A stretch of DNA of 44,971 nt, taken from a virus. Its lineage: Duplodnaviria > Caudoviricetes. The stretch covers positions 1-44,971 of the IMG/VR virus record IMGVR_UViG_3300037439_000094. One strand, given 5' to 3'. The translations under genes and the position numbers were made by a program. Below, piece by piece: positions 1-44,971 of the stretch (position 1 is its first letter; each line of letters begins with the position of its first letter). The notes under the pieces are model-generated. The model did not search any database. It saw nothing but the letters and a program-made list of their open reading frames with translations, and was not told where the DNA came from.

Positions 1-135
1 GAGGTAGACGTGGTGGACGTCGTCCTCCAGCACGAGGATGTCGCCTAACTCGGTGGCGAGACGTCGTCCTCGTCGGATTCTCGCCTGAACATCGGTCAGA
101 TAGTGACCCGGGTCTGACTGGTCGTGGTCACCCAC
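1..135 (-). CDS. hypothetical protein (3' part runs off the window)
   Basis: GTG at 135 with GAAGGAG 8 nt upstream; open frame VGDHDQSDPGHYLTDVQARIRRGRRLATELGDILVLEDDVHHVYL to the window edge; not in the ORF track. Confidence 0.5.
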   Translation of the reverse strand, partial: MGDHDQSDPGHYLTDVQARIRRGRRLATELGDILVLEDDVHHVYL

Positions 136-139
136 GTTG

Positions 140-505
140 TCATCTCCTTCTCTGTTGGCGGCCCAACGCCTGGTCGACGAGAGGCTTGGTGTCCTCTGTC
201 GGTGGAACCGGGGGTGAATACCCCTCGGCGTCCATGGCGTGCGGGTCGGTCACGTCCTCCTCGAAGTCGTACTCCCGGTCCAGCTCAGTGGCGAAGTAGG
301 TCTCGCCCCTGGGCCAGACTCCGAGGATCCAGTCGCCGTTCGGCAACTGGAACCAGAGCCAACCCGAGCGGCCGTCGTCGTCCTCGGGTGCGTTCATCAC
401 GTAGGCGGCCATCTCGGGATCGGCCGGAATCTCGACGGCAAGCAGCTTGTCGGTGAGGTCTCCTCTCTCGTCGTGGTCGTAGATGAGTCGTGCGGTCTTG
501 GTCAC
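140..505 (-). CDS. hypothetical protein
   Basis: Start moved to GTG at 505 (GTGA overlap with the upstream stop, RBS GAAGGAG); acidic, protein-like sequence. Confidence 0.7.
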   Translation of the reverse strand: MTKTARLIYDHDERGDLTDKLLAVEIPADPEMAAYVMNAPEDDDGRSGWLWFQLPNGDWILGVWPRGETYFATELDREYDFEEDVTDPHAMDAEGYSPPVPPTEDTKPLVDQALGRQQRRR

Positions 506-1158
506 TGTCCGTTCTCCTTCTCTTGTCGTATGTCGGCTACGGTCTCGCCCTTCTTGAGACGCTCGAGAACCTCGGCCGTCTGCTCGTCGGAGAGGCTCTG
601 AAGCCACTCGAGATCGACCGGATCAGGGCGGTGAAACGTCGTGGCCGAGCGGGCATAACGCTCCTCGGCATCGGGCGGGCTCGCCGTCTCAGAACGGTCA
701 GACCGTGCTAGGCGGTTGAACTCCCTCGCCATCGGATCGAGGTTGGGTGTCGGGTCGTCCTCCGGTTTCAACCCCGGCGTTCTCGGGCGAGATCCCGTCA
801 ACACGCCCGGCGTCACCCCGGTATACCCGCGCAGACCTCGGATCCTCACCTGGAGGTAGACCTCGATCGGGGGCTTGACCGGACCGAGCTTCGTCGTGCC
901 TACGTCGAGCTCGAGCGATCTCGGCAACCGGCACTGGAGCATCACCGGGTACGCGTCGTGTCTCTCGAGGTCGCGGTGAACGACGGCTGCCTCGGTGGTG
1001 CTCGGTTCGAAACGGTAGATCTCGATGTCGACCGACCGGTACTGACCACCCTTCGGAGGGTAGTGCCAGAAGGCGTTGACGACCCTTCCCTGTACCGCGA
1101 CCCGCTGGTCCACGAGGGGCCGGAGGAGGTGGTAGCGCTGCTGCTCAGTGAGGGACAT
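502..1158 (-). CDS. hypothetical protein
   Basis: 218 aa ORF, RBS AAGGAG, coupled to the downstream gene. Confidence 0.75.
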   Translation of the reverse strand: MSLTEQQRYHLLRPLVDQRVAVQGRVVNAFWHYPPKGGQYRSVDIEIYRFEPSTTEAAVVHRDLERHDAYPVMLQCRLPRSLELDVGTTKLGPVKPPIEVYLQVRIRGLRGYTGVTPGVLTGSRPRTPGLKPEDDPTPNLDPMAREFNRLARSDRSETASPPDAEERYARSATTFHRPDPVDLEWLQSLSDEQTAEVLERLKKGETVADIRQEKENGQ

Positions 1159-1252
1159 AGTAGGGCGGTCTCCTTCCGCCCCACTAGCGATCCTGGCCGC
1201 GAACTGGCTACGGCCCTTGACCTGGTGCGATCCGGATCATAGTGGGGCTATC

Positions 1253-1350
1253 GTTGGGTGCGAGTGGTAATCCTAGAACGGGTTCGAAGTGAAACTTAAG
1301 ACTTAACGGAGCCCTCAGAGGGCTTTCTAGATTTACCACTCGCACCAAAC
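1253..1350. repeat. 26-bp imperfect inverted repeat enclosing three small palindromes
   Basis: 1253-1278 GTTGGGTGCGAGTGGTAATCCTAGAA matches the reverse complement of 1325-1350 at 23 of 26 positions. Confidence 0.9.
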
Positions 1351-1574
1351 TACCACCTAGGTATGCGGGTGACCAGGGTGCCGTCCCGTGAGGCAGTCGT
1401 TCGTCCAGACGAGATCTCGTGGTGAACGGTTACAGCGAAACAGCTGCTGTGCCGCGTCCATACGGTGCCGTATGGAAACCGTGACAGGACGACGGAGGGG
1501 AGCAGCAAGGAGAATCGATCGTCGCCGTCCGTCTCCGTTTAGCTCCGTCCGCTGCCTGGTTCACCTGCGAGATC

Positions 1575-1613
1575 CGTTCGTTCGTTCGTTCGTTCGTTCG
1601 TTCGTTCGTTCGT
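1575..1613. repeat. tetranucleotide microsatellite (CGTT)9CGT
   Basis: Perfect tandem array read directly from the sequence. Confidence 0.97.
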
Positions 1614-1630
1614 CTGGCGATCTCCGTCTC

Positions 1631-1840
1631 TCAGTGTACGACCCGCGGGAAGATGTCCCGCACGTGCAGGTCGGTCCAGTCGGCGTGTCCGAAGGACACC
1701 CCGAAGGTTCGCCCGTGGGATCCGGAGTCCCGGAACCCGACGAAGTAGTTGCGTCGCTCGCGGTTGTACGCCAGCTGGAGCCGCACCCACGACTGGAGTG
1801 CAGCCTGGCTGCGGAACAGCAGAATGCCGTTCGTGGTCAC
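1631..1840 (-). CDS. hypothetical protein
   Basis: GTG at 1840 overlaps the stop of the upstream gene (GTGA), RBS GGAGG; MTTNGILLFRSQAALQSWVRL... Confidence 0.65.
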   Translation of the reverse strand: MTTNGILLFRSQAALQSWVRLQLAYNRERRNYFVGFRDSGSHGRTFGVSFGHADWTDLHVRDIFPRVVH

Positions 1841-2034
1841 CCTGGCCACCTCCCGGTACCGATCGGCTCGTCGGCCTGGTCGATCACGGCCATGACCGAG
1901 TTGTGGGTCACGGCTGAGGCCGTCGCCGGCCCCGTGTCCATGTACCCACCGTCCGCGTACCCGCACCGGCACTGGACGGTCAGTCGACCGTCGTTCTGCA
2001 GGACGGGCGCGGCGTCGTGTCGCTCGTACGCCAT
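1837..2034 (-). CDS. small hypothetical protein with CxC/His residues
   Basis: 65 aa ORF preceded by the conserved GAGAGGAAGCGAC motif. Confidence 0.7.
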   Translation of the reverse strand: MAYERHDAAPVLQNDGRLTVQCRCGYADGGYMDTGPATASAVTHNSVMAVIDQADEPIGTGRWPG

Positions 2035-2121
2035 CTCGTCGCTTCCTCTCGTCTGTCCGGCCGTTCGTTCGCCGGATCGTGGCGCGGGCGGGGTTCGACC
2101 CCCGCTCCGGCCGTTCGCATG

Positions 2122-2301
2122 TCAGCTCAACCGGGGTGCGGTGACCCAGGACCAGCACTCGCCGTTCCAGACCAGTTGTCGGACGTCGTCCTTGGTCACC
2201 TCGATCAGGTGTCCGGTGGTCAGTCGCCGTAGCTGGTGCCCGGCGCCGATCGCGGTCGCGATCTCCACGTGCTTGCTCGGGTGGCAGTCGATCGCGTTCA
2301 T
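2122..2301 (-). CDS. hypothetical protein
   Basis: ATG overlaps the upstream stop; MNAIDCHPSKHVEIATAIG... Confidence 0.6.
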   Translation of the reverse strand: MNAIDCHPSKHVEIATAIGAGHQLRRLTTGHLIEVTKDDVRQLVWNGECWSWVTAPRLS

Positions 2302-2579
2302 CACTGCACCTTCAGGACATGCCAGCCGTCGCCCTCGGTGTGCAGGCACACCGTGACGCCGTTGCCGTAGTCGACTGGCTGCTCGTCGCCGGCACACCTG
2401 GTGTCGTCCACCGGTGGCCGCACGATCTGCTCGGTCGTGGTCGTCGTCGGCTTGACCGTCGTGGTCGTCTGGACACGTGGAGCCTCGTCCTCGTCACCGG
2501 GGACGCTTCCACTGCACCAGCCCACGCCGAAGGCCACGATCACGGCGGTCGCCGCGATCGCCTGCTCTGCTCGTCGCAT
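2301..2579 (-). CDS. membrane-anchored or secreted protein with Thr-rich linker
   Basis: N-terminal hydrophobic segment, TTTTVKPTTTTT linker, small Cys-containing C-terminal domain; conserved RBS motif. Confidence 0.7.
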   Translation of the reverse strand: MRRAEQAIAATAVIVAFGVGWCSGSVPGDEDEAPRVQTTTTVKPTTTTTEQIVRPPVDDTRCAGDEQPVDYGNGVTVCLHTEGDGWHVLKVQ

Positions 2580-2698
2580 GGCTCGTCGCTTCCTCTCTCA
2601 CGGACAGCCTGGTTGCCGCCCTCTGCCCCCACCTAGGCACGCCGTTGTGCCCAGGTGGGAGGAGAGGACTGGCGGGACGCCGTTGTCCCGCCTGTCGC

Positions 2699-3058
2699 TC
2701 AGCTTGCCTTCGCCGGAGCCTTGCGGGCCCGGGGCTTGCGGGTGGGGACCAGGGCGTACCGCACGGTCCGGCCCTCGCCGACCCGCTGGATCCGCTTCTC
2801 GTCGGGCTTGCGCAGCTCGCCGATCTTGGTCTTGTCCCGCACCTCGGGGCTGCCCTCGAGGCGCCAGGTGACGTTGTGCAGGATGCGGTAGTCGACCTTG
2901 GTGGCCGCCACCATCTCCTGGAGGGTCATCCCGTCCTTCTTGCCCTTCAGGGCCTCGAGGACTGCCGGGAAGTGGACCTCGGCCCTCACCGTGGTGCGGG
3001 TCTTGGCCTCGGCCTTCGAGGCGGCCTTCTTGGCCGTGCTGGGCTTCGTGGTGGGCAT
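2699..3058 (-). CDS. winged-helix DNA-binding protein with Lys/Ala/Pro-rich tails
   Basis: Start at ATG 3058 after GAGAGGAAGCGAC; VLEALK..GMTLQEMVAATKVDYRILHNVTWRL..IQRVGEGRTVRY fits a wHTH. Confidence 0.7.
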   Translation of the reverse strand: MPTTKPSTAKKAASKAEAKTRTTVRAEVHFPAVLEALKGKKDGMTLQEMVAATKVDYRILHNVTWRLEGSPEVRDKTKIGELRKPDEKRIQRVGEGRTVRYALVPTRKPRARKAPAKAS

Positions 3059-3154
3059 GTGTCGCTTCCTCTCTCTGTGTGCCCGGTGCTTACCTAGCCC
3101 GGGGGAGGTACCGCCCCATGGGGGTGGCCCTCCTCTCGGCCTAGCTCTCACCCC

Positions 3155-3382
3155 TCAAGGGGTGAACACGGTCTTGTGCACATGGTGGGTGTGTGCGGTG
3201 GAGGTGTGACCATGGGAGTGGTGCCTACAGGCACACCTAATCATGGCCTTCTTGCGGAGGTAGAGGGGGAACTCCTCATCATCATGCGGCTTGTTCCTTG
3301 CATCCTCACCCCTTCTCATGGTGGAGAGAGCTTGGAGGTAGGGAGAGCCATGAGTGAGGTTCTCACTCCTTCTTCTTGTCAT
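3155..3382 (-). CDS. His-rich hypothetical protein, first gene after the leftward promoter
   Basis: 75 aa ORF with AAGGGG RBS and GC3-rich codons; 8 of 9 Arg codons are AGR. Confidence 0.55.
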   Translation of the reverse strand: MTRRRSENLTHGSPYLQALSTMRRGEDARNKPHDDEEFPLYLRKKAMIRCACRHHSHGHTSTAHTHHVHKTVFTP

Positions 3383-3426
3383 GAGCTTGACCCCTTGGGT
3401 GGTGGGTGCTTCTTGCTTCTAGGTCC

Positions 3427-3455
3427 ACTATGAGCCTTGGGGCAAGAGATGTCTA
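3427..3455 (-). promoter_or_regulatory. sigma70/SigA-type leftward promoter
   Basis: TAGACA-N17-CATAGT on the minus strand, upstream of the leftward operon. Confidence 0.6.
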
Positions 3456-3465
3456 GTCCCAATGT

Positions 3466-3481
3466 TGTGACATATGTCACA
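3466..3481. promoter_or_regulatory. perfect palindrome matching the CRP/GlxR consensus TGTGA-N6-TCACA
   Basis: TGTGACATATGTCACA, 10 nt upstream of the -35 box. Confidence 0.65.
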
Positions 3482-3844
3482 TCCTCACATGAAAGAGAGA
3501 GAGGTGTAGGGGGAGGGGGGAGGGGGAGCGGTAAACAGGACATAGTCCCAGGTCACAGGGGGTGCCGACGATTTGCGGCCGGAAAGCCGCCGTACCACCC
3601 ATATCTACACCCACCTCGCTCCCCCGTTTCCCAGACTAAACCGCCTACACAAGCTGTCCGTTCCCTCTCAGATTGCCGGTGAGTACCGCCCTCGCTGCTG
3701 CCTCGATCTCCCGGACCTCCTGAACCCGGAGCGCGACCGCGGGACGCCCCCCACCAACTGGTATCCGCAGCGGAGGTGTCCCCACGGCGGCTCCAGGGCT
3801 GGTAGTCTGGGAGTTTCCAGACACCTACCACACAGGAGACACTC

Positions 3845-3985
3845 GTGAGACTGGTTGCCGTGTTGTTTATCGGCCTGTTGGCACTGGCCGAACACCTCCG
3901 GTTTCGGAGGTTGATGACCGAGGCTGACAGGACCGATCGAGAGATCCGACGACTGCAGAAGACGACCGGCGGCGGGGGGTTCTGA
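3845..3985 (+). CDS. small membrane protein
   Basis: RBS AGGAG; MRLVAVLFIGLLALAEHLRFRR...; below the ORF-track cutoff. Confidence 0.55.
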   Translation: MRLVAVLFIGLLALAEHLRFRRLMTEADRTDREIRRLQKTTGGGGF

Positions 3986-3987
3986 CC

Positions 3988-4191
3988 GTGCCTGGCTTCA
4001 TCTTCACCGAGAACGAGGACGAGGAGCAGCTGACGCTGCGTAACGTGGTCTTTCAGGCTCTCGGCGCCGCCAGCGTGTGTTGGAGCGAGGTTCCCTCGGG
4101 CATCTTCGAGAGCACCCGGGCGCAGGAGGTCGGCCACGCTCTGCTGGCCTGGATCGAGGAGTACTACGTTCCGAAGGAGGAACCCCGGTGA
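3988..4191 (+). CDS. hypothetical protein
   Basis: 67 aa ORF (VFQALGAASVCW..GIFES), coupled to the next gene. Confidence 0.7.
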   Translation: MPGFIFTENEDEEQLTLRNVVFQALGAASVCWSEVPSGIFESTRAQEVGHALLAWIEEYYVPKEEPR

Positions 4192-5186
4192 CGACCACCC
4201 ACACCGACCCCCGCAACGGCACCGACCAGGACCACCAGCGCAAAGCAAACCCCAGACCAAATCCCACCCCATCGGACGGCAAGCCGAGCAGCGACCTCTC
4301 GAAGCAGGTGGTGGTCACGCACCACCACGTGAAGCTCGAGGAGTTCTTCGAGAACCTCGGTCTGCCCTACGACCCGCGACGGACCGTGCACGTTCGGACG
4401 TGCGCCGTCTGCAACATGGGCGGACACGACCTCGACCAGCTGCGGGGACTGCGGCTCCAGCCCAGCCAGGTTCACTTCGCCCCCTTCTGGGGGACGGGCT
4501 TCCACGCCCGCCGCGCCTGGCTAAACCTGACCGCCTGTCTCGGGCCTAGCCTGAATGACCCAGGGATCACCGAACCCGACCAGGGCCACGGACCGCTGGT
4601 GGACCAGGAGATCCAGGCCGACGACGTGGACGTGGACGCCTACGGACGTCCGCTACCGCATCCCGAGGTCCAGAGCAGGAACAGCGTCCTCAGGGATAGT
4701 GTCCTCAGGAGCTTCGAGGAGGAGGAGCCGGCCAAGCTCGGTCTCGCCACCACCCGGGATCTGCTCGAGGAGGTGGCGTGCCGCATGGAGATCACCCATC
4801 GCACCTGGCGGGGCCGGAGGCTTGCGCTCGCCTGCCGGGAGGCCCTGGCCAACCTCGAGAGGCGGGTGTTGGACTACAGCACGGTCAAGCCCGACGGCCC
4901 TGACGATAGGTCCGACGCCTCCTCGGACTACGACAAACCCGACGAACCAGTCCTCGCGACCGAGTTCGACACTGACCCAGGCCTGGCAGCTCCCGCGGGC
5001 GTGTTCGACGTCGAGAAGCTGGACCTCAGTCGCCAGGGCTGGCAACAGTGTCAGCTCGGTTTCCACGCCTGGGTGTCCTGGTTGCCTGTCCACCGGGCCA
5101 ACGATCCGAAGATGCCGATCAACTACTACACGACCTGGTGTGCCCGCGAGGGCTGCGACGCCACTGAGCAGTGGGACTGCCCCTGA
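4188..5186 (+). CDS. hypothetical protein with Cys/His clusters
   Basis: GTGA overlap and AAGGAGG RBS; CAVC, CQLGFHAW and CAREGC motifs suggest Zn binding. Confidence 0.7.
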   Translation: MTTTHTDPRNGTDQDHQRKANPRPNPTPSDGKPSSDLSKQVVVTHHHVKLEEFFENLGLPYDPRRTVHVRTCAVCNMGGHDLDQLRGLRLQPSQVHFAPFWGTGFHARRAWLNLTACLGPSLNDPGITEPDQGHGPLVDQEIQADDVDVDAYGRPLPHPEVQSRNSVLRDSVLRSFEEEEPAKLGLATTRDLLEEVACRMEITHRTWRGRRLALACREALANLERRVLDYSTVKPDGPDDRSDASSDYDKPDEPVLATEFDTDPGLAAPAGVFDVEKLDLSRQGWQQCQLGFHAWVSWLPVHRANDPKMPINYYTTWCAREGCDATEQWDCP

Positions 5187-5383
5187 TGGGCCTGACTAAC
5201 TTCGGACACCACTACCCCTCGAGGGTCCTGGCCCGGCTGCTCAGGCGGTGCCGTCATCACTCGGCCTTTGACCGACCCTGCTGGCATCCCCGGGGTCACA
5301 TCGGGTACCACCACTTCCGACTGGCCGAGCATCTCAGGTACCTGCGTCTACGAAAGCAACTGCGAGAGAGGTGGTTCAGATGA
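5186..5383 (+). CDS. small basic His-rich hypothetical protein
   Basis: TGATG coupling upstream and ATGA coupling downstream. Confidence 0.5.
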   Translation: MGLTNFGHHYPSRVLARLLRRCRHHSAFDRPCWHPRGHIGYHHFRLAEHLRYLRLRKQLRERWFR

Positions 5384-5829
5384 GTGACCAGAAACTGTGC
5401 GGGAAGGTCGTAGAAGGGTTGTCGCCCTGTGTACGACGTCGTGGACACCTGGGTGGAGTACATACCTGGGATACTGCTCGCGCGAGGGAGATGGACCGGG
5501 AGGACGACCAGATGTCCACCGAGTTCAGTACCGCGAACGAACTGCGAGACAGGGGAGAGACCCGCGGATACATGTGGGCGACCGAGTTCGCCAAGAAGTT
5601 CCGGATCGGAACTCTCCACGAAGACGAGTCGATCTCCTGGTGGACCGGACCGTCCACCACGCTCGAGATCATGGGTGTCTGGTTCGCCAACGCGGTGGAG
5701 ACCGGCCGGGAGGAGGGCCGGAAGGAGGCTCTCACCGTCAGGTCGACCGACGGCTTCATCACTCCTGAGGAAGCCCGCGTAGCAGCCGAGAAGCTGCTCG
5801 GGTACCTGATCGAGACGGCAGGGCCATGA
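5380..5829 (+). CDS. hypothetical protein
   Basis: ATGA overlap; N-terminal C..C.R..GH.G.H motif. Confidence 0.7.
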   Translation: MSDQKLCGKVVEGLSPCVRRRGHLGGVHTWDTARAREMDREDDQMSTEFSTANELRDRGETRGYMWATEFAKKFRIGTLHEDESISWWTGPSTTLEIMGVWFANAVETGREEGRKEALTVRSTDGFITPEEARVAAEKLLGYLIETAGP

Positions 5830-5996
5830 CCCCGCTCGCCGTCCGAACGGATCACTGCCTCAACGCCTGGCCGTCGCCGAAGCCGTGCAACTGGACGGGC
5901 GGCTGCTACTGCGACCGTTCCAGAGACCACAGGGGCCGCTGCCGATGCGTGTGCGGCTCGACCCACACGCCGCTCACAGGAGACGACCAGCCATGA
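5826..5996 (+). CDS. 56-aa Cys-rich protein (7 Cys, 3 His)
   Basis: ATGA overlaps at both ends; MTPLAVRTDHCLNAWPSPKPCNWTGGCYCDRSRDHRGRCRCVCGSTH...; not in the ORF track. Confidence 0.6.
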   Translation: MTPLAVRTDHCLNAWPSPKPCNWTGGCYCDRSRDHRGRCRCVCGSTHTPLTGDDQP

Positions 5997-6505
5997 CCGA
6001 CCACACCGATCTACTCGCCCGCGCCGACGACTGGGACGTCACCCAGGACGAGCGTGGTCTCATCGAAGATTTGGCTGCGGCCTTGCGGGCCACTCTCGCC
6101 CAACGAGACGCTGCACGTGACGAACTGCTGGAGAAGTGGGAGTTGTACCGGGCCTGCAACGGCGCCGAGGTCTACGACGAGGTCATCCCGAAGATCCGCA
6201 AGCTCTACATGCAACTCAACGCCAAGGCTCGCGGTGACGAGTCCGACGTGGAAGGTGACCCGATCGAGCAGTGGAACCGGTTGATCGACCTGACCGTCAC
6301 GGCCGTCCTCCGCTGGATCGTGGCGAATCGGTGGTCAGTCAACGAGCACCAGCGGTGCGAGAAGGTCGACGCCCGGGTAGCCGAACTCGAAGCTGCCATC
6401 CACCGAGCGAGCGACCATGTGCCCGCCTATCTGCGTGCCCTGGTGTCGCCGCCCACAGCCAGCACCGCCGTGATCGGCCACGTACACCAACAGGAGGAGA
6501 TCTGA
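5993..6505 (+). CDS. hypothetical protein (coiled-coil)
   Basis: ATG 5993 with AGGAG RBS. Confidence 0.7.
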   Translation: MTDHTDLLARADDWDVTQDERGLIEDLAAALRATLAQRDAARDELLEKWELYRACNGAEVYDEVIPKIRKLYMQLNAKARGDESDVEGDPIEQWNRLIDLTVTAVLRWIVANRWSVNEHQRCEKVDARVAELEAAIHRASDHVPAYLRALVSPPTASTAVIGHVHQQEEI

Positions 6506-6627
6506 TGGGAACTGGACATACTCCCTGGAACCGTCGAGGTGAGAACTGGGACGCCCTGACCTACACCCTCGGGGCCATTGCGGCCATCGTGATCCTGGTG
6601 GCCTTTGTCGTGGACTGGTGGTTCTGA
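6505..6627 (+). CDS. small membrane protein
   Basis: AGGAGG RBS, single TM segment LGAIAAIVILVAFVV. Confidence 0.6.
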   Translation: MGTGHTPWNRRGENWDALTYTLGAIAAIVILVAFVVDWWF

Positions 6628-6878
6628 TGCCCTGGGTCGGAAGCACCGAGATGCACGGTCCGTTCGAACAGGTGACCAAGCGTCGCCGCTGGAAGATCAT
6701 CCATCATTGGGGAACCCAGCTGGGAGATACCCGTGAGTACGAGGTCAGTACGGTGGGAGACTCTCCCGGGGTTGTCTACCTCAAGTCGTCCGGTAGCCCG
6801 TCTCTTCAGCTGAACATCGAGGTGGTGCGGAAGCTGCACGAGGTGTTCGGTAACATCCTGGAGAGAGTCGACAAGTGA
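6627..6878 (+). CDS. hypothetical protein
   Basis: TGATG coupling. Confidence 0.6.
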   Translation: MPWVGSTEMHGPFEQVTKRRRWKIIHHWGTQLGDTREYEVSTVGDSPGVVYLKSSGSPSLQLNIEVVRKLHEVFGNILERVDK

Positions 6879-7105
6879 CCAGGTTCTACGACGAGGGCAG
6901 GACCAGGATCTACTTCGTTCCTACGGTCTACGATCGTTGGAGATACGTGGACAACTGGACCTGGCAGGTGGACTGGGACAAGCTCGTGGCGCCTGGGATC
7001 ACTGAGTACGAGAGACGGTCCCAGCTCGTCTACCAGCACCTGCGTCAGTCAGTCCGAACCTTGTGGCGGCTGATCAGAACGGGCAGTGAACCGGAGGACT
7101 GGTGA
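6875..7105 (+). CDS. hypothetical protein
   Basis: GTGA coupling, Trp-rich 76 aa. Confidence 0.6.
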   Translation: MTRFYDEGRTRIYFVPTVYDRWRYVDNWTWQVDWDKLVAPGITEYERRSQLVYQHLRQSVRTLWRLIRTGSEPEDW

Positions 7106-7470
7106 TTCTGATGCGAACCGGTAGAACTATTCCAACTAACTCTGACATTCCCATGCACGGTTGGCGACCGTACCACGAGATTCACCGTGAGCGGATGCGA
7201 GCACACGCAAAGCACGACCAGGGACATCCCGAGAAGTATGGGGAGGACGGCGGTACCTCGATGGAGCGGATGGACTTCGACCACCCGTTGTGGCTCGCAG
7301 TCCTGGCCGAGGAGTTTGGTGAGGGGGTCGGCCGGGCCATCATCGAAGGTCGGATCTTCGTCCCTGAACATCGAACTCCCGAGGGTATCAACAATCTGCG
7401 TAAAGAGCTAATTCAGTTGGCAGCTATGACCGTGGCCTGGATAGAGGCCATCGACGACACAGTGTGCTGA
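7102..7470 (+). CDS. MazG-like all-alpha nucleotide pyrophosphohydrolase
   Basis: AVLAEEFGE ... LRKELIQLAAMTVAWIEAID pattern typical of phage MazG-like proteins. Confidence 0.65.
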   Translation: MILMRTGRTIPTNSDIPMHGWRPYHEIHRERMRAHAKHDQGHPEKYGEDGGTSMERMDFDHPLWLAVLAEEFGEGVGRAIIEGRIFVPEHRTPEGINNLRKELIQLAAMTVAWIEAIDDTVC

Positions 7471-7736
7471 TGGCTCGTTACGTGTTCAACAGTCGCCGTT
7501 CTCCGTATCGTCTCGAGATTCAACAGAACTACTATGACCGTGGCATGGGTCCGTTCATCGAGCGTGAACTCTCCAGTTGGTCGGCCACCCTTGAGGGAAC
7601 CCGGATCACGGACGAGATGCAGGTCACCGTGGCACTGGAGGGTGAGCTGGACATCGACTTCGTGGACCTCTTCGGAGAGTACGCGGTCCAGTACCTGCTC
7701 GAGAACCGAATCGCACTCCTTACTACTCCTGCGTAG
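7470..7736 (+). CDS. hypothetical protein
   Basis: TGATG coupling, 88 aa. Confidence 0.65.
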   Translation: MARYVFNSRRSPYRLEIQQNYYDRGMGPFIERELSSWSATLEGTRITDEMQVTVALEGELDIDFVDLFGEYAVQYLLENRIALLTTPA

Positions 7737-7754
7737 GTGGTACCCTCTTCCGCT

Positions 7755-8336
7755 ATGGAGGACGCAGAGCAGCAGCTTCGCGGGAAGCCGAAGGTCGTGC
7801 CGATCGACGGCTGGACCCTGCCTCCGCCACCCGACTGGCGGTTGACGGAGGAGACCAAGCACCTGCAGAGGATGGCGATGGGAGCTGTCGCTCCTGAGGA
7901 CCTGACCGTCAGGGGGAAGCCCCGCTGCGTGGCCAAGGCCAGCGTCACCGGGATCAGGTGCGGGAACGAGGCAGTTCTCGGTACCACCGTGTGCAGGTTC
8001 CACGGAGCAGCCACTCCTACGCCTGACAGTCCGGGGGAGGAGAGGTCCATCGGGGCCTCGGCTAAGCGGGCTCGTATCGAGGCAGCCCGGCAGCACCTCG
8101 AGTTCGCCGCGGCTGCAGCTGTCACCGCGGTCATGAGCATCGTCGAGGACGAGATGGCTCGTCCTCAGGACCGGCTCAAGGCAGCCGAGATCATCCTGGA
8201 CCGGACCGTGGGCAAGACGATCACTCTCGACAAGGAGGAGGCCGCGGACCGAGATCTCGACAAGGAGATCCTGGCCATCGCGGAGTCTGTTGCTCCCACT
8301 GGCACGGAGGACTCCTCACCCGCGTCTCCCAGCTGA
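7755..8336 (+). CDS. terS: putative terminase small subunit (HGG-type Zn finger plus helical C-terminus)
   Basis: RCVAK..TG.RC......TVCRFHGA motif, then DRLKAAEIILDRTVGK helix; lies upstream of TerL. Confidence 0.55.
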   Translation: MEDAEQQLRGKPKVVPIDGWTLPPPPDWRLTEETKHLQRMAMGAVAPEDLTVRGKPRCVAKASVTGIRCGNEAVLGTTVCRFHGAATPTPDSPGEERSIGASAKRARIEAARQHLEFAAAAAVTAVMSIVEDEMARPQDRLKAAEIILDRTVGKTITLDKEEAADRDLDKEILAIAESVAPTGTEDSSPASPS

Positions 8337-8348
8337 TACCCTGGGGTC

Positions 8349-8705
8349 ATGGCAGATACACCAGACAACCCACAGGACGACGACCACACGGACGACGACC
8401 AGCGTTGGCGTCCGGTCTCTAGTCGCGAGTGGCAGATACTCGACGAGACGTTCCCGTCTCCGTCGACAGCCGAGCTGCATCACGAATTCCCCTTGACCTC
8501 TGGGCAGGAGATCAGGATGGAGACCCTGGCGTCCGCGTCCAGGATCGTGGCAGCTCGGGTTCCGCAGATGTGGTGGAACCAGGACCAGCTGATCCGGATG
8601 ACGATCGACGTAGCGACAGAGTTCGAGGACTACGTTCGTGGAGAATCAAGTTCCCGAACTGTCGTAGACGAGATACAGGGGTTTCATCGAGATGCCGGAA
8701 CCTGA
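8349..8705 (+). CDS. hypothetical protein
   Basis: 118 aa ORF, apparently leaderless. Confidence 0.65.
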   Translation: MADTPDNPQDDDHTDDDQRWRPVSSREWQILDETFPSPSTAELHHEFPLTSGQEIRMETLASASRIVAARVPQMWWNQDQLIRMTIDVATEFEDYVRGESSSRTVVDEIQGFHRDAGT

Positions 8706-8973
8706 TCTGAAACTGTGCAGCCTGTTGCGGATCCAGAACACGGCCCAGCGCAGCTTCTACTTTATCTGCAAGACACACGGGTGGACGAGTCCTCGGTGTT
8801 ACGACGAGGAGGACCGCCAGACGTTCCTCAACCGGCACGCCATCAACGTGCGTCCTCCTCCGCCGGAGAGCAGCCAGTTGCGTGTTTGGAGGCGGACCCG
8901 CGAGAGGATGGAGGCCCGCGACCGTGAACGTCGGTTGGAGCAGGAACGTGAGCGACTGATGGGAGCCTTGTGA
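8692..8973 (+). CDS. hypothetical protein
   Basis: 93 aa ORF with CKTHG motif. Confidence 0.6.
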   Translation: MPEPDLKLCSLLRIQNTAQRSFYFICKTHGWTSPRCYDEEDRQTFLNRHAINVRPPPPESSQLRVWRRTRERMEARDRERRLEQERERLMGAL

Positions 8974-8992
8974 TTAGTGGTAGGGTCCTCTC

Positions 8993-9181
8993 GTGAACCG
9001 TGACCTTGCTACAGCCGCGATCGCTCTCGTGGTGGGCACACTTCTGTTCTTGTCCGCTCTGGCCTGGAGCGTCGACGAGGAGACCTGGGCACAGTCAGCG
9101 TTGTGTTACGTAGGTTCGTACGTGGCGGGTTTCACGGCTCTGGTCTACTTCTTGCGAGGATTCTTCATCCGTCGGACATAA
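8993..9181 (+). CDS. membrane protein (2 TM)
   Basis: Two hydrophobic segments. Confidence 0.65.
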   Translation: MNRDLATAAIALVVGTLLFLSALAWSVDEETWAQSALCYVGSYVAGFTALVYFLRGFFIRRT

Positions 9182-39659: not shown

Positions 39660-40079
39660 TCAGCCGGCGACCCACACTGCCGACCGAGTCGAACCCTCGC
39701 GGTGGATCTCTCCGGCCTCGCGGAGACGCCAGATGCTCTCGTAGGTGAGCCGCTCGGTGACACCGAGTTCCTCGGCCACTGCCTTGAGGGCCTTGCCGGA
39801 CTTGCCTCCGGCCTTGATGGCCTTGAGGACGGACGCGTCCCGGTCCACGACCTCGGTCGACCGTCGACCCTGGCGAGCAACCGGGAACAGCTTCTGCTTG
39901 TCCCGCTTGACGCTGCCCTTCTCGATCAGCTCCTTCACGGCCTTGCGGACCGAGTCCACGGTGACGCCGGCCTTGGTGGCGACGTCCTTGACGGTGATCC
40001 CGTCCTCGCCTGCCTCGCGGACGATGGAGCTGACGTTCTCCAGGGTGTTCGCTGACTTCGTTGCTGTCTTGGCTGGCAT
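39660..40079 (-). CDS. tandem winged-helix DNA-binding protein
   Basis: GITVKDVATKAGVTVDSVRKAVKELIEKG and AVAEELGVTERLTYESIWRLREAGEI. Confidence 0.8.
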   Translation of the reverse strand: MPAKTATKSANTLENVSSIVREAGEDGITVKDVATKAGVTVDSVRKAVKELIEKGSVKRDKQKLFPVARQGRRSTEVVDRDASVLKAIKAGGKSGKALKAVAEELGVTERLTYESIWRLREAGEIHREGSTRSAVWVAG

Positions 40080-40117: not shown

Positions 40118-40146
40118 ACACTAGCACAGTCTCACAGTCCTGTCAT
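40118..40146 (-). promoter_or_regulatory. SigA-type promoter for the wHTH gene
   Basis: ATGACA-N17-TAGTGT with extended TG. Confidence 0.6.
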
Positions 40147-41363
40147 GCAACTTCCGCAAGTTTGTAGCTGTGCGTGACGTCGATCAGAAACTCGTGATCT
40201 CCGCCCACTGGCTCGCCCTGGTCTGATCCCGGGTTGCCCAGGATCGCCTGGCGGGCCCAGCCACTGATCCACCGGCCACAGTCCACGGGAATACCCTTGC
40301 CCCAGGTCTGTCGGATCACGCTCTTGGCGTCCTCGAAGGTACGGCAGTACCAGGTGTCAGGGAATCCCATGATCCTGGCAACTTCACGGTGGGTCAGAGG
40401 ACGGTCCACCACGGGGTGCAGAACACTCTCGAGTCCTGCCCCCGTGATGACCCTCGCCGGTTCCTTCCACCGCCACCTCGTGAGCTGGGAGGCACCGCAC
40501 CAGAAGTCGGACCGGATGAGGTTCTTCTTGCGGGTCTCCCACGAGTCGGGGAGGTCCCCGTACTTCTCGTAGTACATCTGCATCCGCTGCTGGAGCCTCT
40601 GGCCCTCCTCCCACGGTCCCGTCTGATCCGTGATCAGCTCGAGAGACTTCCGATAGTAGGACCCGTCGTGATACTGGTGGCCGTCCACCAGGCCGTCGGG
40701 AGAGATCCGCGGTTGTGCCCACCACGACGGCTGTGCTCGGTAGGGCTGGGGGTCGAAGGTGAACTCGAGGGGGAGCAGATCACCTATCGCGCTCTGCAGG
40801 GACGGGATGCGGGTTAGGCCTGGGGGTTCGATCCCGAACGGCACCTGGCTGATCACCCAGAAGTACCGCTTCCTCTGGGCGCATCCTCCGACACTTACCG
40901 CGTTGTGCAGGACGTGGTACAGGTTCCACCGGCGGTGGGTGAGTGCCTCGACCCTCTCGCGAAGAGCCTGCATGAGCGACTGGCCCTTCTTGAACGCTGC
41001 CTGAACGCTCTCGAAGATGGCGACCTGGGGGTAGCATGAGGCCGCGAAGTGAGCGAACGCCCACATGCAGTCGTTGATCTTGGAGTCCATACCCCGAAAC
41101 GCCTTGGGCGACAGGGTGGAGAATCCCGAGCACGGTGGGTTCCCGAACACAAAGTCGACCTTGTACGGTACCCACTCGGCGGGGTCAGCTACCTGAGCCT
41201 CCCAGTGCTCACCGAGTAGGTGTCGGTTGGCCTCGCAGTTGAACACCCCGAAGCCACCCCTCATCTCGCGCTTCCCCACGAGACGGAAGCCTGACTGGAC
41301 AGTGCCGAGGGTAAATCCTCCGGCAAAGCCCTGACAGTCGATGGCGGTCAGATCATGCAGCAT
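40143..41363 (-). CDS. C5-cytosine DNA methyltransferase family enzyme with atypical cofactor motifs
   Basis: Motif IV GNPPCSGFS, VI FESV, VIII QRKRYF, IX REVARIMGFP, X WGKGIPV; start ATG 41363. Confidence 0.9.
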   Translation of the reverse strand: MLHDLTAIDCQGFAGGFTLGTVQSGFRLVGKREMRGGFGVFNCEANRHLLGEHWEAQVADPAEWVPYKVDFVFGNPPCSGFSTLSPKAFRGMDSKINDCMWAFAHFAASCYPQVAIFESVQAAFKKGQSLMQALRERVEALTHRRWNLYHVLHNAVSVGGCAQRKRYFWVISQVPFGIEPPGLTRIPSLQSAIGDLLPLEFTFDPQPYRAQPSWWAQPRISPDGLVDGHQYHDGSYYRKSLELITDQTGPWEEGQRLQQRMQMYYEKYGDLPDSWETRKKNLIRSDFWCGASQLTRWRWKEPARVITGAGLESVLHPVVDRPLTHREVARIMGFPDTWYCRTFEDAKSVIRQTWGKGIPVDCGRWISGWARQAILGNPGSDQGEPVGGDHEFLIDVTHSYKLAEVA

Positions 41364-41919
41364 CCGGGTGCCACCTACCACACGGGCAGATCCTTCCCCG
41401 TTCTGCCCCAGCATCCCCGGGACGCACCAGCTCGCCCCGAGGCAGGTCACCTACGTCTCGACCACAAGAGCACTTCGTCGACACTCCGTCGTACCCCTCT
41501 TCCTGTCGCTTGGCGTTGACCGCGGCCTTGTCGAAGTACCGGGAGTAGATCTCACTGGCAAGATCCGAGATTGACCCAGTGCCCACCTCGTTGACGTGAA
41601 CCGCGATCAGCAGGAGGTTCATCAAGAAGTGCAGGGCGTCGACCAGCTCCTTGACGTACTGCTCACGGTTGAGGTAGTCGTTGTCCTCCCAGTCCTTCCA
41701 GTGAATCTCGTCGAGCGCCTCTCCCAGTTCCTTGATCAGAGCTGTGTGGTTGATCGTGACGTACGCAGCTCTCTCGGCGCCGATCATGGTGATAGGGTCA
41801 CGTTTGAACGACCCGACCTGAAGCCGCCACTGGCGGGTGAGCATGGCCGTCAGGCGGTCATACCCTTCTCGTCGCGAGATGTCGGGAACCCGAGGCTCTC
41901 CCCGATCATGGTCAGACAC
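41353..41919 (-). CDS. dimeric all-alpha dUTPase/dCTPase-like pyrophosphatase with C-terminal Cys pairs
   Basis: ELGEALDE..WKDW, KELVDALHF, Y..K..VN..RQ..GY; start uncertain (GTG 41919 has GAGGAG RBS). Confidence 0.8.
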   Translation of the reverse strand: MSDHDRGEPRVPDISRREGYDRLTAMLTRQWRLQVGSFKRDPITMIGAERAAYVTINHTALIKELGEALDEIHWKDWEDNDYLNREQYVKELVDALHFLMNLLLIAVHVNEVGTGSISDLASEIYSRYFDKAAVNAKRQEEGYDGVSTKCSCGRDVGDLPRGELVRPGDAGAERGRICPCGRWHPDAA

Positions 41920-43214
41920 AGGTTCTCCTCTCTCGCGACGTTGAACACTGCTCTCTGCGCTCTCACGATCCACTCCCAGTCCTCCTGGTTGGCGTGCAGG
42001 TGATCGATCCGTTTCCGAAGCTGGCTCACTGATTCTACTCGAAGCCAGCGGGCTAGATGTGTCTGGGTGGACGGACCGCCGTACTCCTCGTCCATCTCGT
42101 CACACTGGTTGAGCGTGGGAACGATGTGTCCCTGGGTGTCGTACTTCGGGTGCATGAAGCAGACCGTCCCTGCCGCGAACAGCTCCCACGCTTTCGGGGT
42201 AGCCCACGAGGCGGACAGTTTGATGGGCACCGCGAAGGAGCAGTGCACGGTCTGTAGTAGTTGGGGGACCGCGTGCCAGGGATACGGCTCGATGGCAAGG
42301 CCCTGCTTCCGATCGTCGTCCCAGGACCCCACGATCCAGTCAGGCCACATCGGCTTGATCCAGTCCCTGAGCACCTCGTCTCGTCCACTTGCCTCACGGG
42401 ACTGGTTCACCATCACCCCGAAGCGACGTCGGCCCTCCCACTGGTCGTTGAACTGGATCGAGTCAGGAACGCAGGACCCCAGCTCGAGTCCGGAGTAGAC
42501 GTACTCCTGCTTCCATGCCCAGCATCCCTCGTGCTTCGGGTGCCACCTAGCTACGTCTCCAAACCCGTACTCCTCAGGAGACTTGGGATCACCGTATCGG
42601 TACGAGGACGGGTTGGTCTGGAAGTCGTACTGACACAGGATCGGTCGCCTCTGCGGCCACTTCAGGTCTCGGGCCTTGAGCTGATTCCAGATGTCCGAGC
42701 ACAGCCACACCGGTTCGTGGTGCCACGGATCCTTGTTGCGCCAGTGGTTGATCCACGACATGATGTAACTGACATTCCGTATGTAGATCATCCGCGAGCT
42801 TCCGAGTCCCGTGGTGCCGTCTACCTTCGGGATCGGCTGGTTGATGGTGTCGTTCTGTCCGATCCAGGAGATGATCCCGTCGCACTCGTCGAGGACGGGG
42901 TCCCAGATCTCCCGCATGTACCTGATGTACGTTGCTGAGTTCTCAGGAGGTGGGGTGCCCTTGACGTTGATGACGATCTCAGCTCGCCGCACGTCACCCC
43001 GGAGGTCGATGTTCGGGTTGCTCACGTTGGAAGGAAGTCCAACCTTCTGGGGATCAGCACAGTCGTTGTGACCCACCAGTACGAATTCCACCTCGGGGTA
43101 CTGCCTTGCCAGTCGGTTCAGGAGAAGGGGGGCCTCCCAGTCTCCTCCTGCCACGCCCCAGTTGGCCGGATCGTAGGCCTGGGTACGCCCGATCTTCGTG
43201 TACGCGATCCTCAA
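41850..43214 (-). CDS. DNA glycosyltransferase, T4 beta-glucosyltransferase-like (GT-B fold)
   Basis: By-eye match to T4 BGT as recalled: MRIAY..IG, LCSDIW (BGT LFTDIR), TPKAWELFAAGTV...YDTQGHI (BGT TLRVWETMASDAV...FDTKHRI). Confidence 0.75.
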   Translation of the reverse strand: MRIAYTKIGRTQAYDPANWGVAGGDWEAPLLLNRLARQYPEVEFVLVGHNDCADPQKVGLPSNVSNPNIDLRGDVRRAEIVINVKGTPPPENSATYIRYMREIWDPVLDECDGIISWIGQNDTINQPIPKVDGTTGLGSSRMIYIRNVSYIMSWINHWRNKDPWHHEPVWLCSDIWNQLKARDLKWPQRRPILCQYDFQTNPSSYRYGDPKSPEEYGFGDVARWHPKHEGCWAWKQEYVYSGLELGSCVPDSIQFNDQWEGRRRFGVMVNQSREASGRDEVLRDWIKPMWPDWIVGSWDDDRKQGLAIEPYPWHAVPQLLQTVHCSFAVPIKLSASWATPKAWELFAAGTVCFMHPKYDTQGHIVPTLNQCDEMDEEYGGPSTQTHLARWLRVESVSQLRKRIDHLHANQEDWEWIVRAQRAVFNVAREENLCLTMIGESLGFPTSRDEKGMTA

Positions 43215-43324
43215 GGTCGCTCCTCTCTCAGGGGGTTCGCGGTGGGGGTGGCTTCCGTTGTCGCGCGGATTCGAGTCAACGGGTATGTGAGCTGTGCGCC
43301 ACCCCCACCACGATCAGGCGGTGG

Positions 43325-44278
43325 TCAGGTGGGGACCACCGGCGGGGGTGTGCCCGGCACGGGGAGCGGTTGCTGGGGCGGCTGCTGCAGGTTGAGCGGT
43401 TGACCCGGCAGCTGATCCGTGGGCTGGGCCTGGGGCTGAGCCTGACCCGGCTGCGGGAACCCAGGAGGCACCGGAAGCTGCTGCGCCTGGTTGGGATCGG
43501 GCTGCTGCGGCATCTGGGGCTGCTGAGCCTGCTGCGGCTGCGGGTATCCCGGGGGCGTGGGCATCTGCGGCTGGACCGGAGGTGCCACCCCTCCCTGCGG
43601 GGGAGGTGGTGCCTGGGGAGGTGCCTGTGGCATCGGGGGTGCCTGCGGTTGCATCTGCGGCTGCATGGGCTGCGGCTGTGGCTGCATCGGAGGCTGGGGT
43701 TGCATGGGCGGTGGCCCCACGTTGGGCTGGGGCATCTGCTGGAATCCCGTCTGACCCTGCATCACCGGCTGTCCAGGCTGCATGGGCTGCTGGAACTGCG
43801 GTGCTGGCATCCCGGGTTGCATCCCGTAACCCGGCTGGGGGGCCTGCGGCTGGGGCACGCCCTGAACCTGCTGTGCGAGCATGGCCCAGGAGTCGACGTT
43901 CTGTCGCCCTGACGCCGTCTTGAGGGTGACGTGAGCCTGCCGACCCTGGATGGCCTGGGCCACCTGCGGGAGGGCCTGCTCGACCGGGACGTTGAGCTGA
44001 CCCCAGTAGTTCGCGTCGAGGCCGAGGATGGCGAAGTTCCGGAACCAGTGGTACATCGCCCCGTCGTTGTCGGGAGTGAGGACGAAGTTGTGGACCGAGA
44101 CACGATTGGCGTAGGGACCCTGGAGGATCCGGAGCCTTGCCTCGACCATCCACTTCGGAGGCTGGGTACGGCTCGACTTCACCGCTGCCCCACTGACCTC
44201 GATGTCGTACTCACCGTCGGGCACTGGCTCGCTTCCCCCGAACTGTCGAACGAGGTCTGCGAAGTTGACACCTGTCAT
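43325..44278 (-). CDS. DUF669-like ssDNA-binding protein with long Pro/Gln tail
   Basis: PVPDGEYDIEV..A..K.S, M....RILQGPYANR...NFVL; follows a Sak4-like ATPase. Confidence 0.75.
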   Translation of the reverse strand: MTGVNFADLVRQFGGSEPVPDGEYDIEVSGAAVKSSRTQPPKWMVEARLRILQGPYANRVSVHNFVLTPDNDGAMYHWFRNFAILGLDANYWGQLNVPVEQALPQVAQAIQGRQAHVTLKTASGRQNVDSWAMLAQQVQGVPQPQAPQPGYGMQPGMPAPQFQQPMQPGQPVMQGQTGFQQMPQPNVGPPPMQPQPPMQPQPQPMQPQMQPQAPPMPQAPPQAPPPPQGGVAPPVQPQMPTPPGYPQPQQAQQPQMPQQPDPNQAQQLPVPPGFPQPGQAQPQAQPTDQLPGQPLNLQQPPQQPLPVPGTPPPVVPT

Positions 44279-44296
44279 CTGTCGTATCCCTTCTGC

Positions 44297-44971
44297 TTAT
44301 TGGGTCGCCTGGGGAGCAAGGTGCGGGTACACCTTCCACAGGACATCTCGTGTGAGGTTGGGGGTCGCATCCCACATGGTCGGAGGAGCGGTACTTGACG
44401 GAGTGCCGTATAGAACCGCGGGGACTCGGGCCTGAACCCTCTGCCCTGCATAGTAGAGGGGATTTGTTGGTCGGGTGAGTAACCACCGCGATTCATACGG
44501 CTCCCCGTACTGGTCGAACGCGAAGGACCCGTCCGCGTTCCTGTACTGCTCCATCTCGAGATAACCGATGATGTCAAACCAGTACGGGAGAGCAGCTCTG
44601 ATACCACCCTCGAGGTTCGGCTCGAACATACCCGAACTCTGCAGCCGAGTCTCAGCTACGAACACGGCCATCTGCATCGGGTTGATGGGGTGCAAGGTGA
44701 GGTCTCGGTAACCACGGAGGACGATGTCCATCCGTCGAAGCAGCTCACCCCACTGATCCTGCTTCCACTTGTCGCCGGCCGGGCTGATCTTGTCCTTGAG
44801 CTTGCGCTGGATCTCCGAGATCGAGTCAAGGATGATCGATCTGAAATGGTGCTGACCGGTCTCGAGCCACACGAGGCCCTGCACCAGTACCTCGAAGTCG
44901 GTGACGATCACCATACACGCGTCCCAGGAACCGTCCCATGCCGGGGGCGGACCCATCTTCGGGTTCCAGGG
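44297..44971 (-). CDS. AAA_24/Sak4-like ATPase (5' end outside the window)
   Basis: Walker B IILDSISE, QWGEL, P.LEG, FDIIGYL; frame open to the window edge. Confidence 0.8.
   Translation of the reverse strand, partial: PWNPKMGPPPAWDGSWDACMVIVTDFEVLVQGLVWLETGQHHFRSIILDSISEIQRKLKDKISPAGDKWKQDQWGELLRRMDIVLRGYRDLTLHPINPMQMAVFVAETRLQSSGMFEPNLEGGIRAALPYWFDIIGYLEMEQYRNADGSFAFDQYGEPYESRWLLTRPTNPLYYAGQRVQARVPAVLYGTPSSTAPPTMWDATPNLTRDVLWKVYPHLAPQATQ

Follow-up and report, generated by a model that had tools for sequence, protein, structure and literature searches.

Three overlapping genes of an actinophage-like virus as the probable downstream part of a T4-type glycosyl-5-hydroxymethylcytosine pathway with a remodelled methyltransferase homologue

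In the present study, we analyzed a 44,971-nucleotide stretch of DNA from a tailed virus (Duplodnaviria; Caudoviricetes; IMG/VR record IMGVR_UViG_3300037439_000094, positions 1 to 44,971), hereafter called the window, in which three overlapping genes at 40143..43214 probably form the downstream part of a T4-type glycosyl-5-hydroxymethylcytosine (5hmC) pathway in an actinophage-like virus. An ORF finder places all three open reading frames (ORFs) on the minus strand (41850-43214, 454 aa; 41353-41973; 40143-41450), and from their likely starts the genes are as follows.

41850..43214, minus strand: beta-glucosyltransferase (BGT)-fold DNA glycosyltransferase, 454 aa, start TTG at 43214
41353..41919, minus strand: gp56-type all-alpha dNTP pyrophosphatase, approximately 188 aa, PF08761, presumed start GTG at 41919
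40143..41363, minus strand: C5 cytosine methyltransferase (MTase) homologue, 406 aa, PF00145, start ATG at 41363

The GTG at 41919 has AGGAG 5 nt upstream, and the ORF finder runs on to 41973; with this presumed start, the transferase and pyrophosphatase genes overlap by 70 nt, and the pyrophosphatase and MTase genes by 11 nt. The initial annotation of this locus, which described three linked, overlapping genes as a hypermodification cassette of a BGT-like transferase, a dCTPase-type enzyme and an atypical MTase, was borne out by the ORFs, by the family and fold assignments and by the neighbourhood counts given below.

In the proposed pathway, a dCMP hydroxymethylase and a kinase, the genes of which are expected in the third of the genome missing from the assembly, would lead through 5-hydroxymethyl-dCMP (hm-dCMP) to hm-dCTP; the gp56-like enzyme would remove dCTP, replication would then incorporate hm-dCTP, and the BGT-fold transferase would add a sugar to 5hmC in DNA after replication. 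As in T4, 5hmC made before replication is the most likely acceptor of the transferase, and the MTase homologue probably does not produce it.

Regarding the transferase, no match was found in Pfam, PHROG or NCBIfam, and a PDB search with its sequence returned nothing, while 69 homologues were found. A model built from 67 sequences (predicted local distance difference test, pLDDT, 94.8) had T4 BGT as all of its top six Foldseek matches (E 1.5e-10), the first other protein following at 1.6e-7, and in VIA it matched T4 BGT with Z 23.4 (rmsd 3.4, 304 aligned), ahead of the next GT-B protein at Z 17.9 and the T4 alpha-glucosyltransferase at Z 16.4. The hhalign alignment pairs K341/W343/E344 of the transferase with R269/W271/E272 of BGT. 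D174 of the transferase is invariant and is a candidate for the catalytic base, which in BGT is D100, a pair that no tool aligned. The protein differs from T4 BGT in being approximately 10-12% identical to it, 100 aa longer and outside any Pfam or PHROG family. Judging from the modelled fold, the transferase likely works like BGT, and it is predicted to glycosylate 5hmC in DNA. The sugar donor is likely a host NDP-sugar because the compact lineage to which the window belongs, as described below, has no epimerase beside the transferase.

The product of the second gene matched PF08761 (dUTPase_2, E 1.4e-12), and its pairwise comparison with T4 gp56, which is annotated in GenBank as removing dCTP and dUTP, gave E 6e-07 over 53 aa. 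In a 15-sequence alignment with T4 gp56, the residues Q, E, WK.W, E..D and K..N..R..Y were invariant and common to all.

The linkage of these genes was surveyed in the loci of the best 80 of 123 viral-contig matches to the transferase, and an MTase gene was present in 66 of the 80. Where 4 kb or more of downstream sequence was available (60 loci), the MTase was present in 58, the dNTPase in 56 and an epimerase in 54, and the two loci without a nearby MTase had a PF00145 gene elsewhere in the record. The linkage between the transferase, MTase and dNTPase is far beyond chance, and the earlier grouping of the three genes thus holds among homologues. The usual order begins with a kinase, a thymidylate synthase (TS)-like gene, a dCMP deaminase, PolA, RuvC, SNF2, an exonuclease, Sak4 and a single-stranded DNA-binding protein (SSB), and continues with the transferase, one or two epimerases (sometimes SIS), the dNTPase, the MTase and a helix-turn-helix (HTH) gene; of the 47 loci that extend 9.5 kb or more upstream, 40 include a TS gene. 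A compact cassette without epimerases was found in the window and at loci L081, L001 and L017. L081, on a 70-kb contig, was the closest relative fetched (transferase 66% identical), and its compact cassette is preceded by deaminase-PolA-RuvC-SNF2-exonuclease. Viral-contig scans for close relatives of the transferase found none. At L107:1824-3371 and L111:3094-6069, a gene for a fused nucleotidyltransferase-phosphotransferase and a GatZ-like gene lie just upstream of a transferase of approximately 480 aa, and these genes would represent another sugar-donor route.

The initial annotation stated that neither a hydroxymethylase nor a TET dioxygenase is present in the window, and considered that the MTase itself may make the acceptor in a two-enzyme route. 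The first part stands insofar as PF00303 (the TS family) had 0 matches in the record; the inference drawn from this absence is not supported. The record, which is linear and 64% complete (CheckV), also has no DNA polymerase PolA and is cut within the Sak4 gene. In relatives, the genes beyond this break are the exonuclease, SNF2, RuvC, PolA, dCMP deaminase, TS-like gene and dNMP kinase. We searched 39 whole records, comprising 36 from the 80 loci, for which long contigs were chosen, and three named phages with the same MTase clade, and PF00303 was detected in 39/39, including 28/28 of those at 90% or more complete. Asp was found at ThyA positions 143/169/177 in 40 of 43 TS-like ORFs, the other three, one of which is truncated, giving no resolved pattern, and these Asp residues align with those of T4 gp42. 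According to the accessible part of PMC13326640, Asp177 is diagnostic of dCMP, Asp or Glu143 of hydroxymethylation and Asn169 of a hydroxylase. The lack of a hydroxymethylase probably stems from truncation of the record; a gene with its signature, of the kind that the initial annotation had named as a refutation, was found in the relatives, though this genome itself did not show one, and the two-enzyme route is regarded as unlikely.

The same records were searched for other routes to an acceptor. Matches to TET (Tet_JBP, PF12851) were found in 0/39 records in a search run without a positive control, and matches to 2OG-FeII_Oxy_3 (PF13640) in 0/38 records of an overlapping set, in which the control was detected. 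CmoA was found in 0/39 records, with the control detected in E. coli, and a CmoY-type ligase (Asn synthase) in 0/38, with its control detected, which speaks against the carboxymethyl acceptor that the initial annotation had also considered.

The genome can be extended from public data: a 4,528-nt contig of run X1, which may be the source sample, covers 42526-44971 and continues for approximately 2.08 kb past the right end. In L081, the last ORF of the locus, lying upstream of the deaminase, is HNH-like. A scan with the L081 deaminase returned relatives only 48% identical, one of which, L220, has a kinase and an Asp-signature TS upstream. When the region upstream in L081 was compared with three runs, one 1.4-kb contig in run X1 matched PolA and RuvC in order at approximately 80% identity; its depth of 14.6 resembles that of the contigs of the window (12.4-15.3). 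This match is suggestive only and was not used as proof.

The third gene product matched PF00145 (E 4.1e-17), and its model (pLDDT 93.5) has a complete C5-MTase fold, with matches to 3g7u (Z 28.8), HaeIII (Z 25.3), CmoX (8yf3, Z 23.9) and HhaI (Z 22.3). At a cut-off of E 1e-30, its clade comprises 1,277 proteins; 120 of these, the top-scoring ones, were listed and 83 aligned. Canonical C5-MTase features are present in motifs IV (PC), VI (Glu) and VIII (RxR) as well as in the fold, while the motif-I FxGxG and the motif-X Asn are absent. The catalytic residues C78, E118, R164 and R166 were invariant in the 83 aligned homologues, as was ESV. In an ungapped alignment from M.HaeIII to the clade, F7 becomes Q/M/L, G9 becomes F (F13) and the motif-X N306 becomes K. 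This Lys, K356 of the motif-X 'GK', lies opposite N306 of M.HaeIII and is invariant in the 83 aligned homologues, which confirms the earlier description of a 'GK-type' MTase. Among the best 120 listed, Phe replaces the first Gly of motif I (FxGxG) in 116 and KG occurs at motif X in 118, the remainder being unresolved by pattern in each case, and motif IV reads NPPC, not SPPC, in 120/120. The motif-II Glu (E33) is invariant in the 83 close homologues, but Kurnik, Sixama and DSL-LC01 have lost it. More distant members (S-TIM5 gp080, phage G gp301, L072, L076, L078 and L080) have a bulky motif-I residue and Gln at motif X. In sequence, the likeness to CmoX (E 0.0014) was weaker than that to ordinary MTases (E 1e-15).

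Members of the clade were found in the isolated phages Kurnik of Micrococcus and Sixama, GMA2, Forza and GodonK of Gordonia. Among 21 MTase loci from cellular genomes, there was one close member (41%), the others being weak matches, and this sole member lies on a 17.5-kb contig with a phage gene order in a Coriobacteriia bin. A winged-helix domain is fused to the MTase C terminus in 23 of 57 MTase ORFs; the winged-helix protein encoded beside the cassette may be a functional partner of the MTase homologue because its own homologue is fused to the MTase in many relatives.

The survey was extended to 79 MTase-centred loci, 28 of which came from records new to it. TS was detected in 18 of these 28 records, including 8/8 near-complete ones, the 10 without TS being 8-55% complete, and 16 of the 18 TS had the Asp signature. 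At seven loci (L139, L143, L151, L153, L155, L158 and L160), the neighbourhood of the MTase yielded no transferase of the present family; its place, or a position a few genes further upstream, is taken by an amino acid:DNA transferase, a DSP phosphatase and, at all but L139, an HMUDK kinase. HAD and inositol-1-phosphate synthase genes also replace the sugar transferase at L139:4943-9587, L151, L153, L155, L158 and L160, and the TS of the L139 record is of the dCMP type (Asp177). At loci of the L139 type, 5hmC is a candidate for hypermodification with an amino acid or amine. In Kurnik, Sixama and DSL-LC01, other annotated glycosyltransferases occupy that place. Two genomes of 32-36 kb without a PolA match, G056 (L199-L200) and G063 (L201-L202), encode a kinase, a hydroxymethylase-type TS, a deaminase, a dNTPase and a Lys-type MTase, with glycosyltransferases among their virion genes only. 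The MTase homologue is thus part of the 5hmC core and travels with that module, and it is independent of the present transferase because it is kept when the transferase slot holds other tailoring genes.

Several points weigh against the assignment of the cassette to a T4-type pathway. The sequence likeness between the transferase and BGT is weak, with hhalign aligning 77 C-terminal columns only at a probability of 29%. The dCTP specificity of the pyrophosphatase comes from context, dCTP versus dUTP not being readable from the sequence, and a hydroxymethylase was seen neither in this record nor in the L081 locus. The residue signatures of the TS-like ORFs are correlative, and enzymes of the RB69 type show that TS homologues can surprise; moreover, the relatives share ancestry and include some near-duplicate records, so that the counts lack independence. 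According to the accessible part of PMC12783734, the motif-X Lys is also the change engineered in M.MpeI N374K to obtain a carboxymethyltransferase, so that use of carboxy-S-adenosylmethionine is structurally conceivable. In the window, GAGCTC occurs at 1 site (observed/expected ratio, O/E, 0.06) and GCATGC at 0, a near-absence that would be odd if every C were sugar-capped and that suggests partial modification or past selection.

The role of the MTase homologue is puzzling because 5hmC is predicted to occupy already the C5 that it would methylate. We rank first, at somewhat below an even chance, a chemistry on 5hmC that is independent of S-adenosylmethionine (SAM) and proceeds via the catalytic Cys, either small-nucleophile coupling or a site-chosen removal of the hydroxymethyl group, because the Cys/Glu/Arg core is intact, the SAM motifs are altered and C5 would be occupied by 5hmC. 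Nucleophile coupling by C5-MTases has an in vitro precedent. The passages of PMC11347137 that were available describe C5-MTases stripping the hydroxymethyl group of 5hmC as formaldehyde. A bolder and more doubtful form of this reading is that the virus-specific MTase-fold clade of 1,277 proteins is a dedicated 5hmC editor that abandoned SAM methyl transfer and, through its catalytic Cys, exchanges the 5hmC hydroxyl for a small nucleophile or strips the group at selected sites, beside a new family of BGT-fold transferases; if true, a reaction known to date only from in vitro work would have a role in nature, and a new DNA base would be possible.

Differing from the favored reading on the MTase only, a tentative explanation, in line with the two independent modifications that the initial annotation gave as its other option, holds that the replacement of C by 5hmC is partial and that a SAM-dependent MTase homologue methylates the leftover C, possibly at GpC, as a second layer. 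The retention of the catalytic motifs and of the complete C5-MTase fold, together with the invariance of E33 in close homologues, is consistent with this, as is a GpC O/E of 0.75 in both the window and L081 (0.73 and 0.82 at the codon junction) against 0.90-1.28 in four control actinophages (0.90-1.16 overall). The genome of cyanophage S-TIM5, which encodes a distant homologue of the MTase, is said to be methylated at purine-C. Against a methylated second layer stand the Phe at the first Gly of motif I and the loss of the motif-II Glu in three named phages, and a plain methylase is not expected to track the hydroxymethylase so closely. The depletion of GpC is, moreover, not common to most relatives, with a median of 1.04 in 67 of their loci; together with the near-absence of GAGCTC and GCATGC, the low GpC of the window may stem from restriction by the host or from a modification that depends on sequence context. 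The depletion of CC in relatives was rejected as a signature of modification because the four control actinophages show it too (0.72-0.87).

The remaining explanations concern the acceptor or the base itself. C5-MTases add aldehydes without SAM in vitro, a reaction the reverse of which is the formaldehyde loss mentioned above, and the altered MTase, with its remodelled cofactor pocket, intact catalytic core and tie to the 5hmC core genes, may be imagined to take a hydroxymethyl group from formaldehyde or a one-carbon carrier and add it to replicated DNA, as a backup supply of acceptor; this is unlikely, as every near-complete relative searched already has a hydroxymethylase-signature gene, and the co-occurrence of the MTase and transferase without one, which the initial annotation had proposed to look for, was seen in no near-complete record. 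A route through 5-hydroxymethyluracil (5hmU), in which a deaminase turns hm-dCMP or hm-dCTP into the uracil form, the transferase glycosylates 5hmU in a base-J-like manner and the pyrophosphatase removes dTTP or dUTP, is quite improbable. T4 itself has a dCMP deaminase yet makes glucosyl-hmC, the present pyrophosphatase aligns with gp56, and the palindromes that the relatives G056 and DSL-LC01 avoid most strongly, TTAA and ATAT, contain no C, a pattern consistent with C being protected and T not. In favor of 5hmU, the dCMP deaminase adjoins the TS-like gene in relatives, some of which carry HMUDK and the amino acid:DNA transferase, families known from hmU pathways, and the available text of 10.1101/2024.12.05.627091 reports that some such deaminases act on 5hmC nucleotides. 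In G056, it was also observed that ATAT, TTAA and GTAC are almost wholly avoided.

Least probable of all is that the Lys-type enzyme is a CmoX-like carboxymethyltransferase using carboxy-SAM (Cx-SAM), the product of which would then be modified by the transferase. Its Lys does lie at the position of CmoX R350 and M.MpeI N374K, and CmoX is among the fold matches, but neither CmoA nor the Asn-synthase-type ligase was found in the records searched, the distant relatives have Gln at motif X, and 5hmC would block C5. In the 5-carboxymethylcytosine system of Synechococcus phage S-B43, which consists of CmoA, CmoX and CmoY, the criteria for CmoX are SPPC and Arg at the HhaI N304 position, as far as the accessible part of PMC12783734 goes (PDB 8YF3); the present clade shares with it the C5-MTase fold and a basic motif-X residue, but has NPPC and Lys and is linked to a dCMP hydroxymethylase and a sugar transferase, and CmoA and CmoY were not found in the relatives searched.

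Among other known systems, the glucosyl-5hmC pathway of T4 (gp42, gp1 kinase, gp56 dCTPase, Cd and beta-gt) is alike in its BGT fold and gp56-type residues and, in the relatives, in a hydroxymethylase-signature TS, a kinase and a deaminase. It differs in having no constant C5-MTase homologue, whereas the genes described here lie in a PolA-type, actinophage-like context and most relatives add epimerase, SIS or NTP-transferase genes; membership in the T4 pathway is not fully shown, as the hydroxymethylase of this genome was not seen. The clusters of a C5-MTase, a TET enzyme (5mYOX) and a glycosyltransferase, in the parts of PMC8256090 and 10.1101/2023.12.21.572611 that were available, are alike in the C5-MTase beside a GT-B enzyme, often with an epimerase; the present relatives differ in having a TS-family gene, a kinase and a dCTPase, and no TET was found in the Tet_JBP search, which was run without a control. 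The arabinosyl-5-hydroxycytosine pathway of RB69 and DLP3, according to the accessible part of PMC13326640, is alike in its dCMP-acting TS homologue and in the sugar-donor genes by the transferase, which in the relatives are the epimerase and SIS, but the D169N hydroxylase signature is absent here, Asp169 being kept in the resolved relatives.

In Bacillus phage G, gp301, a homologue of the MTase in which motifs I and X are altered, lies near the alpha-glucosyltransferase gp306 and near a TS homologue with the same Asp143/169/177 pattern (L210:3742-9035, L213). Both gp301 and S-TIM5 gp080 differ from the present clade in having Gln, not Lys, at motif X and a different type of transferase, and the literature searched assigned no function to these two MTases. 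The only TS-family gene found in S-TIM5, gp076 (L209:4757-5593), has Asp at ThyA position 177 and Cys at 143; these residues suggest a dCMP methylase, encoded near an MTase homologue with a remodelled pocket, which bears on the origin of the purine-C methylation attributed to that phage.

The cassette is flanked by SSB-like and Sak4-like genes on its upstream side and by genes for a winged-helix protein and a prim-pol/D5 helicase on its downstream side. The flanking features are as follows.

39660..40079, minus strand: winged-helix DNA-binding protein, with HTH matches in Pfam
43325..44278, minus strand: SSB-like protein (DUF669) with a Pro/Gln-rich tail, a kept upstream neighbour, assigned from family matches
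44297..44971, minus strand: Sak4-like AAA_24 annealing protein, running off the end of the contig, assigned from family matches

The Pro/Gln-rich tail of the SSB-like protein is approximately 190 aa long and is present in L081 too. The remainder of the window is a tailed-phage virion module of 63% GC. Positions 1-9000 contain many short ORFs without assignment, and repeats occur between genes, for example (GAAC/GTTC)n around 1700; the longer ORFs of this region that were tested for family matches gave none except the terminase small subunit. The GC content, the WhiB genes in relatives and the hosts of the isolates suggest an actinobacterial host.

In the literature searched, which included few subscription papers and no supplements, nothing was found on this family of transferases or on the MTase clade; the accessible passages of the Pyle preprint mention GT-B enzymes beside ThyS and methyltransferases in bulk, and its contig tables may list this family among the GT-B contigs linked to TS. 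The T4-type 5hmC pathway is known, and what sets the present case apart is an unannotated family of BGT-fold transferases together with a constant, remodelled MTase homologue. The transferase family may extend sugar-capped 5hmC DNA to a large actinophage-like group with varied sugar donors, and would be useful for 5hmC labelling tools and for understanding the escape from restriction. The sharper question is why a cytosine-C5 enzyme is retained in genomes in which C5 is predicted to be occupied, and isolated phages carry the same clade.

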